A stretch of DNA of 64,000 nucleotides, taken from assembly GCA_964586775.1 (NCBI GenBank), contig CAZPJD010000184.1, positions 69,987-133,986 of the forward strand, given 5' to 3'. The number at the start of each line of letters is the position of its first letter. Positions within the stretch are counted from its first letter, which is position 1. The notes under the pieces were generated by a model, which ran no database searches, was not told where the DNA came from, and saw nothing but the letters and a program-made list of their open reading frames with translations. The position numbers were made by a program, and so were the translations under genes. Origin of the DNA: an uncultured bacterium (lineage in GTDB: Bacteria; Lernaellota; Lernaellaia; JACKCT01). Shown here in pieces: positions 47,114 to 52,238 of the stretch.

Positions 47114-47856
47114 TTGAGCCCCGGCGGCGGCTGGATCTTCGTGAACCCGGCGGGCAGTTCGAAGAGCGCGTCGTTCACCGTGGGGAACTCGATCTTCTTA
47201 AGCGTCTTCGTCGTCGAGACGATCTGCCCCTGCGCGTTGGTCACCGTTTTTTGCTCGACGGGGTAGCCGGGCAGAAGTTGCACCTGCGCGTAGAACTTGT
47301 CGAAGGTCGCCGAGGTCGCGCCGCCCACCGACAGGCGAAACACGTGAACGAGATCCGCCGCGGTGAGGCCCGCCTTGGCCGCCACGCACTGCGTGGTGGT
47401 GGACGTGATGCCCGGTCCGAGAACCTGCTTCGCGGCGACCTCGTAGTCCTCGCAATTCCACGCGCCCACGTCGCGCTTTTTGCCCGTCGCCACAAACAGA
47501 GGTTCGGGGATGACGAACACGCCGTTTTCAACGCGACCGAAGACCGACAGGCTTTGCATGCCCATCTGCGCGAGTTTGTCGGAGCCGATTTCGACGTAGG
47601 TCTTCGACGGCGAGTGGACGAGCCACGCCACGCCGAGGTCCGGGCGGTAGATCGCGATCTCGCCGTTGCTCGACTCGGTGCGCATGCGGTCGCCGCGCAC
47701 CCAGGTCTTGATGGTTCCGCCGGGCGCGCGCTGCCCCGGCGGGGCCGAGGTCGCGAGCAGTTCCTCGATATAGAACGCGCGCTCCTGCGCGAACGCGCTC
47801 ACCGCCAGCGCGAGCGCCGCGAGACAAATTCCGATGACGCGAATCCATTTAGCCAA
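47110..47856 (-). CDS. secreted hypothetical protein (DUF4412-like)
   Basis: Signal peptide MAKWIRVIGICLAALALAVSAFA. 248 aa. Its stop overlaps the IMPase start. Confidence 0.65.
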   Translation of the reverse strand: MAKWIRVIGICLAALALAVSAFAQERAFYIEELLATSAPPGQRAPGGTIKTWVRGDRMRTESSNGEIAIYRPDLGVAWLVHSPSKTYVEIGSDKLAQMGMQSLSVFGRVENGVFVIPEPLFVATGKKRDVGAWNCEDYEVAAKQVLGPGITSTTTQCVAAKAGLTAADLVHVFRLSVGGATSATFDKFYAQVQLLPGYPVEQKTVTNAQGQIVSTTKTLKKIEFPTVNDALFELPAGFTKIQPPPGLK

Positions 47857-48985
47857 TGATCATCTGCTCCGTGGCGAGCTGCCCGTTTTCGAATCGCTCC
47901 GGATAGCACGCGTCGAGTTCCGGGTGTTTGCGTCCGCCGACGATCGCCTCGGCCATGATTTCGCCCATCACCGGCGCCATCATGAAACCATGGCCCATGA
48001 ACCCGTGGCACTGCCAGAATCCCGGCCAGCCGCGCGCCGGGCCGAGGATCGGGTTCGTGTCGGGCGTGATGTCGTAGTACCCGCCCCACTGACGCAGCAC
48101 CTTGACCGGCCCGAGCTGCGGAATCAGATCGATCATGAGCCGGCTGATCTTGCGCACGAAACGGAAGGTCGGCGTATATCCGGTCGGCGTGTGCTTGTCC
48201 ACTCCCACGCACGCGTAAATCTCGCCGCGCATCGTTTGCGAAACGAAAAGTCCGCTGTCCATCGGCACGAGATTCGGCCCGAGAAAGGGCCGTAGCGCCT
48301 CGGTCACGAGCGCCTCGTGTTTCTCGGGATGATTCGGCAGTCGAACCCCCAGCATCGCGCCGATGGCGGGCGCCCACGCCCCCGCCGCGTTGACGACGAG
48401 GTCGGTCTCGATGTCGCCGCGCGTCGTGCGCACGCGGTGGATCGTCCCGGCTTCGCCGTCGATACCCGTGACCTCGGTATGCGTGCGCAGGTCGTGGCCG
48501 AAGCGCGCAATGGCGCGGGCGTAAGCCCACAGCACCGAAAACGGAAAGATCGTGCCGTCCGTGGGGTTGAACGCGCCGCCCGCGACCCCGTCGAGATTCA
48601 CGAAGGGGCACATCGATCGGATCTCGGTGCGGTTCACGATGCGGCTGCGAACGCCGTGCGCGTTTTGCAGGGCGACGTTCGTCTCGAGCTGCGCGAGCTG
48701 CTCCGGCGACTTGGCGAGAAACAGGTAGCCGTCCTGCCGGAACCAGATGTTCGCGCCGGTTTCGCGCGTGAGGTCTTTGTAGAGTTCCACCGAGCGCTTC
48801 ATCAGTTCGATGTTGTTCGCGGTGGACCACTGCTGGCGCACGCCGCCGCCGCAGCGCCCGGTCGCGCCGCCGTTCAGGTGGCCGCGCTCGACGACGACCA
48901 CATCGCGCCGCCCCCGTCGGCCGAGTTCGTACGCGATGGCGAGGCCGATGACGCCGCCGCCGATGATGACGACGCGCTCACCCAT
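47849..48985 (-). CDS. FAD-dependent oxidoreductase, SoxB/DadA/HcnC-like catalytic (beta) subunit
   Basis: N-terminal FAD-binding VVIIGGGVIGLAIAYEL. 378 aa. It is co-operonic with the 2Fe-2S and HcnB-like genes. Confidence 0.85.
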   Translation of the reverse strand: MGERVVIIGGGVIGLAIAYELGRRGRRDVVVVERGHLNGGATGRCGGGVRQQWSTANNIELMKRSVELYKDLTRETGANIWFRQDGYLFLAKSPEQLAQLETNVALQNAHGVRSRIVNRTEIRSMCPFVNLDGVAGGAFNPTDGTIFPFSVLWAYARAIARFGHDLRTHTEVTGIDGEAGTIHRVRTTRGDIETDLVVNAAGAWAPAIGAMLGVRLPNHPEKHEALVTEALRPFLGPNLVPMDSGLFVSQTMRGEIYACVGVDKHTPTGYTPTFRFVRKISRLMIDLIPQLGPVKVLRQWGGYYDITPDTNPILGPARGWPGFWQCHGFMGHGFMMAPVMGEIMAEAIVGGRKHPELDACYPERFENGQLATEQMIIG

Positions 48986-49265
48986 CGCCCGGCTCCGACG
49001 TGTCGCGCCCCGCGAAATCGGCGAGCGTGGTCATGCTCGTCGGCGGACGACTGACGAACGGCGCGCTACCCGCGAACGACTCTCCCGTTTCCTCTTCCAA
49101 CAGACGCACCATCGCGGCGACGCACCCCTTGGCCTGACACGCACCGGTCCCCACGGCGAGATAACGCTTGAGGCTCTCCAGATCGCGGCACCCGCCGCGG
49201 ATCGCCTCGCGGATCTCGATCTCGGTCACGTCTTCGCACCAGCAGACGAGCGTCTTCGCGGTCAT
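48978..49265 (-). CDS. small BFD-like [2Fe-2S]-binding protein (95 aa)
   Basis: The start MTAKTLVCWCEDVTEIEIREAIRGGC...GTGACQAKGC carries a CxC...CxxxC BFD-like motif. ATGA overlaps with both neighbours. Confidence 0.65.
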   Translation of the reverse strand: MTAKTLVCWCEDVTEIEIREAIRGGCRDLESLKRYLAVGTGACQAKGCVAAMVRLLEEETGESFAGSAPFVSRPPTSMTTLADFAGRDTSEPGDG

Positions 49266-50665: not shown

Positions 50666-50678
50666 GACGACGCCCGCG

Positions 50679-52238
50679 TCAGTTGAATTTCTCGCTGATG
50701 GACTTGGCCTGCGTGAACAGGAGGAGATAATCGCGCCCGCCCGCCTTGGAATCGGTCCCGCTCATGTTGAATCCGCCGAAGGGGTGAACGTCCACGAGCG
50801 CGCCGGTGCACTTGCGGTTGATGTACAGGTTCCCGACGTGGAAGTGGCGCTTGGCGTATTCGACCGACATGCGGTCGTTCGTCCAGATCGCGCCCGTCAG
50901 GCCGAACTCCGTCGCATTCGCGATGCGGATCATCCCCTCGATGCCGCCCTCGCCGCGAATAAGCGCGAGAATCGGCCCGAAGATCTCTTCCTGGTCGAGG
51001 CGCGCGCCGGGCTTCACGTCGTCGAACACCGCGGGCGTTAAAAAGTAGCCGCCATTGATGGCCGGGGTTTCGCCGCCCGCGACGAGTCGTCCCTCGCTCT
51101 TGCCGATCTCGACGTACGAGAGGCACTTGTCGAGGCTCGCACGATTGACGACCGGACCCATGCCGGTCGCCGGATCGCGCGGGTCGCCCACGCGGATCGC
51201 CGCGACGCGCGCGAGCAACTTTTCGCGGAACGCGTCGTACACATCGGGATGGATGATCGCCCGGCTGCACGCCGAGCACTTTTGCCCCGAAAATCCGAAT
51301 GCGGCCGCCGACACCGCCGCCGCCGCGAGATCGAGGTCCACGCCGCGGTCGATCACCATCGTGTCCTTGCCACCCATCTCGGCGATCACGCGCTTGATCC
51401 AGATCTGCCCGGGGACCGTGCGGCCCGCTTTTTCGACGATGCCGAGGCCGACCTCTTTCGACCCCGTGAACGAGATGAACCGTGTGCGTGGGTGCGTCAC
51501 GAGTTCCTCGCCGGCCGTGGCCCCACCGCCGGGCAGGAAGTTCACGACGCCGGGGGGAAGCCCGCACGCGCTCAGCACGTCGAAGAACATCTGCGCCACG
51601 AGCGGCGAATCGCTCGACGGCTTGAGCACCACCGTATTGCCCGCGACGATCGCCGCGCTCGTCATGCCCACCATGATCGCCACGGGGAAATTCCACGGCG
51701 GAATGACGACGCCCGCGCCGAGCGGAATGTAGAACAGCTCGGAGAGTTCGTCGGGGATCTGCGTGCAGGGTTTCGGGCCGCTTTGCAGGTCGAGGGCCTG
51801 CCGCGCGTAGAATTCGAGAAAGTCGATCGCCTCGGCGGTGTCGCCGTCGGCCTCGGCCCATGGCTTGCCGACCTCGAAGACCATCGCCGCCGAGAATTCG
51901 TGCTTGCGCGCGCGCATCTGGGCCGCCGCGTCGAAGAGCAGCTTCGCACGCCGTTTCGCCGGCCAATCGGCCCAAGCGGGAAACGCCGTCCACGCCGCAT
52001 CGAGCGCCGCGCGCGCCTCGGCCGCGCCGGCCTTGGCAAATGTCGCCACACGCTGCGCTGGATTCGCCGGATTGATGCTGTCGAACGTCGCACCGGGCGC
52101 GACATCGCGACCGCCGATCACCAGCGGATACGTCGCCCCGAGGCGCGACTCGACGAGCGCCAGTGCATCGGTAAAAGCCTTGCGATTTTCGGGAGTTGTG
52201 AAATTCGTGAGGGGTTCATTGCAGAAGACGGCAGGCAT
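50679..52238 (-). CDS. pruA: L-glutamate gamma-semialdehyde (1-pyrroline-5-carboxylate) dehydrogenase
   Basis: The start MPAVFCNEPLTNFTTPENRKAF is an N-terminus typical of RocA/PruA. It has the aldehyde dehydrogenase catalytic Cys (FGFSGQKCSACSR) and Glu (IAEMGGKD). 519 aa. The 110-codon leader of the track ORF was discarded. Confidence 0.9.
   Translation of the reverse strand: MPAVFCNEPLTNFTTPENRKAFTDALALVESRLGATYPLVIGGRDVAPGATFDSINPANPAQRVATFAKAGAAEARAALDAAWTAFPAWADWPAKRRAKLLFDAAAQMRARKHEFSAAMVFEVGKPWAEADGDTAEAIDFLEFYARQALDLQSGPKPCTQIPDELSELFYIPLGAGVVIPPWNFPVAIMVGMTSAAIVAGNTVVLKPSSDSPLVAQMFFDVLSACGLPPGVVNFLPGGGATAGEELVTHPRTRFISFTGSKEVGLGIVEKAGRTVPGQIWIKRVIAEMGGKDTMVIDRGVDLDLAAAAVSAAAFGFSGQKCSACSRAIIHPDVYDAFREKLLARVAAIRVGDPRDPATGMGPVVNRASLDKCLSYVEIGKSEGRLVAGGETPAINGGYFLTPAVFDDVKPGARLDQEEIFGPILALIRGEGGIEGMIRIANATEFGLTGAIWTNDRMSVEYAKRHFHVGNLYINRKCTGALVDVHPFGGFNMSGTDSKAGGRDYLLLFTQAKSISEKFN

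Follow-up and report, generated by a model that had tools for sequence, protein, structure and literature searches.

The closest described relatives of the system reported here are the heteromeric L-proline dehydrogenases of archaea. PDH1 of Pyrococcus horikoshii (α4β4; PH1363/PH1364; PDB entry 1Y56) has an α subunit with a γ-like N-terminus that carries no [2Fe–2S] cluster and with a four-cysteine domain at its C-terminus; the L-proline dehydrogenase of Thermococcus profundus has free γ ([2Fe–2S]) and δ subunits, the δ subunit being similar to the C-terminal ∼90 residues of PDH1-α (Watanabe et al., PMC4575208, Table S2). The bacterial D-hydroxyproline dehydrogenases (D-HypDH) and opine dehydrogenases (OpnDH) are α4β4γ4 assemblies with two flavin adenine dinucleotides (FAD), an interface flavin mononucleotide (FMN) and iron–sulfur centres (PMC4575208). 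Here, we describe the gene structure, domains, cofactor-binding motifs, closest relatives and conserved context of a four-gene cassette on the minus strand of a 64 kb stretch of DNA from an uncultured bacterium (64 000 nt of contig CAZPJD010000184.1; this whole stretch is referred to as the window). The cassette encodes a Δ1-pyrroline-5-carboxylate (P5C) dehydrogenase (P5CDH) followed by the α subunit, a 95-residue δ-like protein and the β subunit of a flavoenzyme, and adds an uncharacterised bacterial enzyme to a known kind, with a hybrid subunit layout and in a pathway-level operon. Judging from sequence comparison, we consider it probable, at roughly 60%, that the cassette provides a two-step route from L-proline through P5C to L-glutamate that is independent of the classical proline dehydrogenase (PRODH).

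The window enzyme resembles PDH1 in its FAD-dependent, DAO-fold β subunit, which carries an Arg-x-Trp motif, in the γ-like domain fused to the N-terminus of α ahead of a Rossmann core, and in the predicted reaction, L-proline to P5C. It differs from PDH1 in that its β subunit is only 37% identical and falls into a separate bacterial clade, in that its α subunit retains the four [2Fe–2S] cysteines that PH1363 lacks, and in that the C-terminal four-cysteine domain of PH1363 is here a separate 95-codon gene; the operon coupling to P5CDH is a feature of the window enzyme. PDH2 (T. profundus/P. horikoshii; αβγδ; PdhA/B/F/X) shares the separate small δ subunit and a [2Fe–2S] γ module, but γ is free in PDH2 and fused to α in the window (four genes versus three), and the host of the window is a bacterium with ∼65% GC, presumably a mesophile. 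The window layout is thus a combination of the two archaeal ones, with γ fused as in PDH1 and δ separate as in T. profundus. A second β-type homologue of P. horikoshii (P0214, possibly PDH2-β) is 39% identical to the window β. The bacterial enzymes LhpBEF, OdhABC, NoxAB, OoxAB and HcnABC have the same set of modules and probably the same set of cofactors, but in these γ is a free subunit and the BFD domain is part of α, which is the reverse of the arrangement in the window; their genes keep company with transporter, arginase, epimerase or deaminase genes, whereas the window enzyme is accompanied by P5CDH.

The first gene of the operon is predicted to encode a bona fide P5CDH, both by curated equivalog cutoffs and by matches to solved enzymes. 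The protein scores 473.8 bits against Pfam Aldedh, 664.2 bits against TIGR01237 (cutoff 659.65) and 742.5 bits against NF002852 (cutoff 648), and matches the enzymes of Bacillus halodurans (PDB entry 3QAN; 586 bits) and Thermus thermophilus (PDB entry 2BHP; 561 bits). The motifs with the catalytic Glu and Cys (EMGGKD and GQKCSA) align with those of 3QAN. Against models of α-ketoglutarate-semialdehyde dehydrogenase (KGSADH) the score is 338–364 bits, less than half of the cutoffs of 750–770. PutA, or a monofunctional PRODH (PF01619) together with a P5CDH (PutB/PutC, Thermus type), shares with the cassette the predicted pathway and the TIGR01237-type second enzyme; PRODH, however, is a (βα)8-barrel, while the first enzyme in the window is a DAO-type multi-subunit flavo-iron–sulfur complex of unrelated fold. 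Many bacteria use a monofunctional PRODH with a TIGR01237-type P5CDH, and the view in the original prediction that bacteria normally use PutA was an oversimplification. Neither PRODH nor PutA is encoded within the 64 kb window, which says little about the whole genome. A search of the literature gave no account of this operon, nor of a heteromeric L-proline dehydrogenase from bacteria, which is not proof of absence.

Gene context is the decisive evidence for a link between the flavoenzyme and P5C, and the strongest. Related loci were collected by exact-protein look-ups, a genome scan (one protein query, giving four close loci) and an alignment-based metagenome scan; 100 loci (numbered with the prefix L) were gathered, and 93 were analysed with the window, forming 70 groups at 90% β identity. 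The window β itself had no exact match in an assembly index. Neighbouring genes were called with a filter on third-position GC (GC3) and cross-checked by tblastn. The bacterial β subunits form two subclades. In that of the window, a TIGR01237-type P5CDH lies directly upstream and on the same strand in all eight assessable groups (the window, L001, L002/L005, L003/L004, L006, L007, L022 and L099), the β subunits of which are only 52–65% identical and which occupy at least three distinct flank contexts; the contig of L099 opens inside a P5CDH gene, of which it retains the final 43 codons, near-identical in product to the C-terminus of the window P5CDH. In the sister subclade, where β is 44–51% identical, a different P5CDH is found: it is of the TIGR01236 type (743–760 bits, cutoff 613.6), is 32% identical to the window P5CDH and is divergent from α in L012/13, L026 and L046 and downstream of β in L056. 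The P5C reductase ProC (TIGR00112; 306 bits, cutoff 196.75) is encoded no more than 100 nt downstream of β in 12 of the 45 assessable sister-subclade groups and within 3 kb of β in 15 of them. Since two non-orthologous P5CDHs and ProC have been recruited beside one flavoenzyme family, P5C is suggested to be the product or the substrate of the flavoenzyme. Because independent genomes with differing flanks hold the same four-gene cassette, its arrangement also exceeds what chance would give. The original prediction of a heteromeric flavoenzyme of the PDH1/HcnABC type coupled to P5CDH is thus borne out, by the PDH1 top matches, by the P5CDH linkage in eight of eight groups and by the TIGR01236-type and ProC partners.

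These loci show several further arrangements. Within the sister subclade, a compact unit of α, δ (often fused to β), β and ProC is found in L094 (3343–7489) and also in L065, L074, L098, L080, L041, L026 and L012, with at least two types of flank; L026 has both ProC and a divergent TIGR01236-type P5CDH. In L034 (3935–5665), and likewise in L038, L058, L078 and L081, all of the sister subclade, an orphan 576-residue aldehyde dehydrogenase (ALDH) is encoded directly upstream of α; its top NCBIfam and PDB matches reach 74 and 63 bits, respectively, and it might be a third, unrecognised type of P5C or semialdehyde dehydrogenase. In L099 the P5CDH–α–δ–β cassette (3155–6326) stands immediately upstream of a maf–yggS–proC–yggT–divIVA–yggU cluster, which suggests an ancestral operon position adjoining proC. 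In both L099 and L012, ProC belongs to a conserved housekeeping neighbourhood, maf–yggS–proC–yggT.

Several observations weigh against L-proline as the substrate. L100, a member of the window's own subclade, has β by itself; 11 of the 24 fully assessable groups of the sister subclade have no P5C partner at all; and co-transcription of ProC with the flavoenzyme, as seen there, would be futile for an enzyme that uses proline. No gene for a proline transporter, regulator or racemase lies near the operon in the window. In the β phylogeny described below, bootstrap support is only 16–30% at the nodes where the bacterial clade, that of the archaea and the NoxB/Azospirillum pair are joined; as the bacterial and archaeal clades do not resolve as sisters, substrate specificity is not transferable by phylogeny alone.

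Alternatively, proline would not be the substrate: the flavoenzyme would make P5C/glutamate semialdehyde, or something closely analogous, from another compound, with P5CDH carrying the product on to glutamate or hydroxyglutamate. Candidate substrates would be trans-4-hydroxy-L-proline (giving 3-hydroxy-P5C) and ornithine, free or N5-substituted, with oxidation at C5. The context evidence indicates P5C and not proline itself, an α–δ–β–ProC operon would make better metabolic sense as a biosynthetic route (from a precursor through P5C to proline), substrate switching among secondary amines is known for the family (PMC4575208) and the bacterial clade is separate from that of the characterised archaeal enzymes. 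The closest characterised homologue nevertheless uses L-proline, and the window genes scanned (∼28–64 kb) include no arginase, ornithine aminotransferase, hydroxyproline epimerase, HOGA-type aldolase or opine transporter. The proximity of ProC, moreover, may be partly positional, given the housekeeping neighbourhood in L099 and L012. Oxidation of a primary δ-amine is atypical for this flavoenzyme family. We regard a non-proline substrate as unlikely on balance, yet as the main alternative. It is a more doubtful proposition that the ProC-linked operons of the sister subclade constitute a proline/P5C redox cycle, or that the whole bacterial clade, with the window enzyme in it, acts on an unrecognised precursor of P5C and not on proline. 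In such a cycle ProC could turn P5C into proline at the expense of NAD(P)H, and the flavo-iron–sulfur complex could re-oxidise the proline, passing the electrons to the respiratory chain; if true, this would be a bacterial counterpart of the eukaryotic PRODH–PYCR cycle. The D-hydroxyproline dehydrogenase pathway (LhpBEF) was considered separately and rejected: the ALDH of the cassette falls below the KGSADH cutoffs, and the scanned ∼28–64 kb contain no epimerase and no deaminase/DHDPS-like gene.

A neighbour-joining tree of β (200 bootstraps) was built from relatives of the window β, relatives of PH1364 and plasmid-borne comparators found by tblastn against plasmids. The comparators were NoxB of pTiT37, a second Ti-plasmid β, a SoxB-like protein with soxD, soxA, folD and purU as neighbours, an Azospirillum β and an unannotated homologue from A. 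brasilense; HcnC, LhpB, OdhB and OdhB2 are outside the tree. The window β falls into a bacterial clade (68% bootstrap) that splits into the window's subclade (92%) and the sister subclade (84%), while the archaeal PDH-β sequences and one Bipolaricaulota sequence form a clade at 100%. Identities to the window β are 37–43% for the archaeal PDH β subunits (37% for PH1364), 36–38% for the β of an Azospirillum sp. TSH58 plasmid, 33% for the SoxB-like protein, 28% for NoxB of pTiT37 and 27% for the second Ti-plasmid β. By these comparisons the closest characterised relatives of the window β are the archaeal proline dehydrogenases, although it lies outside their clade; the label 'archaeal-type' given in the original prediction is a misnomer, as β sits in a large bacterial clade apart from the archaeal one. 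The β subunits of the nearest database relatives are 93% identical and come from metagenome-assembled genomes labelled 'Deltaproteobacteria bacterium'; other relatives are labelled Myxococcales. The β from Candidatus Bipolaricaulota (P0244/P0237), which is 51% identical to PH1364, nests within the archaeal PDH-β clade, which indicates that the archaeal form, as distinct from that of the window's bacterial clade, has been transferred between domains.

The tree bears on whether the enzyme is instead a dehydrogenase of opines or other secondary amines (Odh/Nox/Oox-like, type 2), with the ALDH serving an unrelated or downstream step. The components are those of HcnABC-like opine enzymes (a 2Fe–2S domain, α and β), and OdhB2, the β subunit of type-2 OpnDH, is reported to lie near the archaeal L-proline dehydrogenase group yet to be inactive on proline (PMC4575208); in addition, the Azospirillum sp. 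TSH58 plasmid homologue adjoins an amino-acid ABC transporter. Set against this, the window β has only 27–28% identity to the Ti-plasmid β subunits and does not group with NoxB of pTiT37 (OdhB2 being outside the comparison), the cassette is not adjoined by genes for an ABC transporter, an arginase or an opine synthase, and the ALDH linkage is specific to P5CDH, in two families, and to ProC. An opine-type enzyme is thus a rather improbable explanation. Clustering with HcnC or OoxB, away from the proline dehydrogenases, had been named beforehand as a pattern that would refute the proline reading, and as far as NoxB is concerned it does not appear in this tree, which lacks HcnC.

The domain content of the subunits points to PDH1 in the same way. 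α has Fer2_4 at residues 21–97 (77.1 bits) and Pyr_redox_2 at residues 167–439 (Pfam), and its top solved relative is PH1363, PDH1-α (1Y56_A). The Cys-x4-Cys-x2-Cys-x12-Cys motif at the N-terminus of α is intact, its N-terminal GxGxxG (VGAGLAG) is conserved and a second dinucleotide motif is degenerate. The 95-residue protein matches SO_alpha_A3 (52.2 bits) and Fer2_BFD (45.8 bits) in Pfam and aligns with the C-terminal residues 413–482 of PH1363 (E = 0.0023), which among homologous complexes is its best match, as it is for α; its Cys-x-Cys-x32-Cys-x4-Cys pattern is invariant across relatives, and it is the equivalent of the T. profundus δ subunit as described in Table S2 of PMC4575208. β matches Pfam DAO (266.4 bits), has the N-terminal FAD-binding GxGxxG and has PH1364, PDH1-β (1Y56_B), as its top PDB match, which covers the full length (residues 4–375; 281 bits, E = 1e-82); dimethylglycine dehydrogenase and SoxB reach 149 and 138 bits. 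The Arg-x-Trp motif of β, a putative interface FMN site (PMC4575208), is present as Arg298-x-Trp300, is invariant in 16 bacterial relatives and aligns with the LRTW of PH1364. All of the motifs of the PDH/D-HypDH/OpnDH architecture (PMC4575208) are therefore found: GxGxxG in both α and β, Arg-x-Trp, the four cysteines at the N-terminus of α and the four-cysteine BFD domain. No transmembrane segment was predicted in α, δ or β; membrane anchoring was considered and rejected, the sole hydrophobic maxima of α and β being their Rossmann motifs. The domain assignments made from the DNA alone (P5CDH, a [2Fe–2S]–Rossmann fusion, a BFD-like protein and a DAO-type subunit) agree with these Pfam and NCBIfam results.

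The same searches bring up a sarcosine-oxidase-like N-methyl amino-acid oxidase or dehydrogenase: relatives are annotated 'sarcosine oxidase subunit beta' by JGI and NCBI, and in NCBIfam α, the 95-residue protein and β score highest with soxA and soxB subfamily models. The scores, however, are far under the cutoffs (204 against 529 for β with soxB and 184 against 1164 for α with SoxA), and none of the three proteins reaches an NCBIfam family cutoff. β is homologous to SoxB, and α and the 95-residue protein together correspond to the N-terminal 600 residues of SoxA: α spans positions 14–470 of the 996-position model, without the folate/GCV_T part, and the 95-residue protein aligns with positions 514–600. 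The folate-binding C-terminal half of SoxA is missing from the window, as are SoxD and SoxG of SoxABDG, whereas a genuine Sox-type cluster contains δ, a 965-residue α, γ, folD and purU. As a true SoxB also scores half of what PDH1-β does, we consider a sarcosine-oxidase-like activity very improbable. The three functional modules likewise match HcnA, HcnB and HcnC, as they would in a hydrogen cyanide synthase converting glycine to HCN and CO2. Cyanogenesis needs neither P5CDH nor P5C reductase, the conserved partners here (an exclusion by context only), and the closest characterised relative of β is a proline dehydrogenase; of all the activities weighed, we give this one the least credence.

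Variation among relatives bears on the redox centres. The α subunits of L001 and L002 (6264–7730 in each), which are the closest to that of the window, have lost all four [2Fe–2S] cysteines, while the cysteines are kept in the window, L003, L009 and L012. Because L001, L002 and PH1363 have all lost them, the N-terminal [2Fe–2S] cluster of α appears to be dispensable. The difference between L001/L002 and the window parallels that between PDH1 of P. horikoshii and PDH2 of T. profundus. In myxobacterial relatives (L009, 8001–9488, from Archangium lipolyticum, and many 495-residue matches) the BFD/A3 δ domain forms the N-terminal part of a fusion with β, which makes three arrangements of these modules in all, the others being a free δ and a δ within α; in L009 the fusion is not adjoined by an ALDH.

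Returning to the L-proline route, its substrate, product, flavin content, order of carriers and acceptor are those that we infer from PDH1, D-HypDH and OpnDH. β, with its FAD and DAO fold, would oxidise the C5–N bond of L-proline to give P5C. The electrons would leave β through an FMN at the α/β interface, where the Arg-x-Trp motif lies, would cross the iron centre or centres of the 95-residue protein and the N-terminal [2Fe–2S] domain of α, and would end at the nucleotide-binding core of α, from which they may pass to the respiratory chain, a ferredoxin or a cytochrome. P5C would open to glutamate γ-semialdehyde, which the co-transcribed NAD+-dependent P5CDH would then oxidise to glutamate. 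With a route of this kind, bacterial proline catabolism would have a second first-step enzyme beside PRODH/PutA, one of unrelated structure. The route would also assign a concrete function to a large and generically named family: the matches listed in the metagenome scan include more than 500 relatives, and thousands of database entries are named just 'FAD-binding oxidoreductase' or 'sarcosine oxidase subunit beta'. This would affect how metabolism is reconstructed for uncultured bacteria of soil and sediment, Myxococcota-like ones among them, and the three-gene layout, together with the natural cysteine-less α variants in L001 and L002, offers a system for asking which redox centres matter.

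The features of the window that are discussed here are listed in Table 1.

Table 1. Positions of the cassette, its flanking features and a DMSO-reductase-family gene set in the window.
Feature	Position	Strand	Remarks
P5C dehydrogenase (L-glutamate γ-semialdehyde dehydrogenase), 519 aa	50679–52238	−	First gene of cassette; Bacillus/Thermus (TIGR01237) type
α subunit, 467 aa	49262–50665	−	HcnA/γ-type [2Fe–2S] domain at N-terminus, fused to FAD/ADP-binding Rossmann oxidoreductase core
δ-like small subunit, 95 aa	48978–49265	−	Four-cysteine domain; BFD-like/sarcosine-oxidase A3
β subunit (predicted catalytic), 378 aa	47849–48985	−	FAD enzyme of DAO fold
Presumed promoter region (inferred only)	52239–52356		118 nt intergenic, between P5CDH start and divergent TPR gene
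Tetratricopeptide repeat (TPR) gene	52357–53091	+	Divergent from operon, on opposite side of 118 nt intergenic region
Signal-peptide protein, 248 aa	47110–47856	−	TTG start (47856) overlaps β stop; not needed by operon model
Inositol-monophosphatase (IMPase)-family gene	46292–47113	−	4 nt overlap with gene of 248 aa protein
Molybdopterin oxidoreductase, 1194 aa	17915–21499	−	DMSO-reductase-family set
Fer4_11 subunit, four-cluster	16766–17893	−	DMSO-reductase-family set
EB_dh haem-b subunit	15778–16755	−	DMSO-reductase-family set
Cytochrome c	14560–14955	−	DMSO-reductase-family set

The four minus-strand genes had been placed at 47849–52238, and these coordinates proved to be exact. All four have GC3 far above GC at the second codon position, a pattern typical of real genes (the GC content of the window is 62–69%). 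An ATGA overlap had been claimed for every junction, but this holds for only one of the three, that between α and the 95-residue protein (49265–49262). P5CDH ends in a TGA stop (50681–50679) and is separated by a gap of 13 nt from the ATG of α at 50665, with no overlap, and the genes of the 95-residue protein and β overlap by 8 nt (ATGGGTGA, 48985–48978). The stop codon of β is TAA (47851–47849). A scan of the minus strand for promoters and terminators gave nothing that exceeded background, with no consensus σ70 site and no terminator-like site between the genes.

The operon may extend downstream, as the gene of the 248-residue protein overlaps the stop codon of β and is itself overlapped by the IMPase-family gene; the transcription unit may thus reach past the four genes and into these two. 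The 248-residue protein has a hydrophobic N-terminus and no Pfam or NCBIfam match, and is probably co-transcribed with the cassette. Its homologues, which have weak DUF4412 matches, are encoded 3′ of β in L001, L005 and L008; the homologue of L002 is displaced. Translational coupling joins the pair that it forms with the IMPase gene to the operon's end, and the synteny is kept in L001, L005 and L008. The window holds one more IMPase-family gene, at 12748–13530.

Two other regions of the window may be mentioned. The minus-strand genes at 14560–21499 form a type-II DMSO-reductase-family set (Table 1). A ZnuA/ABC metal-uptake operon on the minus strand (37327–40538) encodes an ABC-3 permease with a C-terminal Fe_dep_repr_C (DtxR-type metal-binding) domain, and a DtxR-family repressor with a FeoA domain has its own gene near it on the plus strand (35033–35995).

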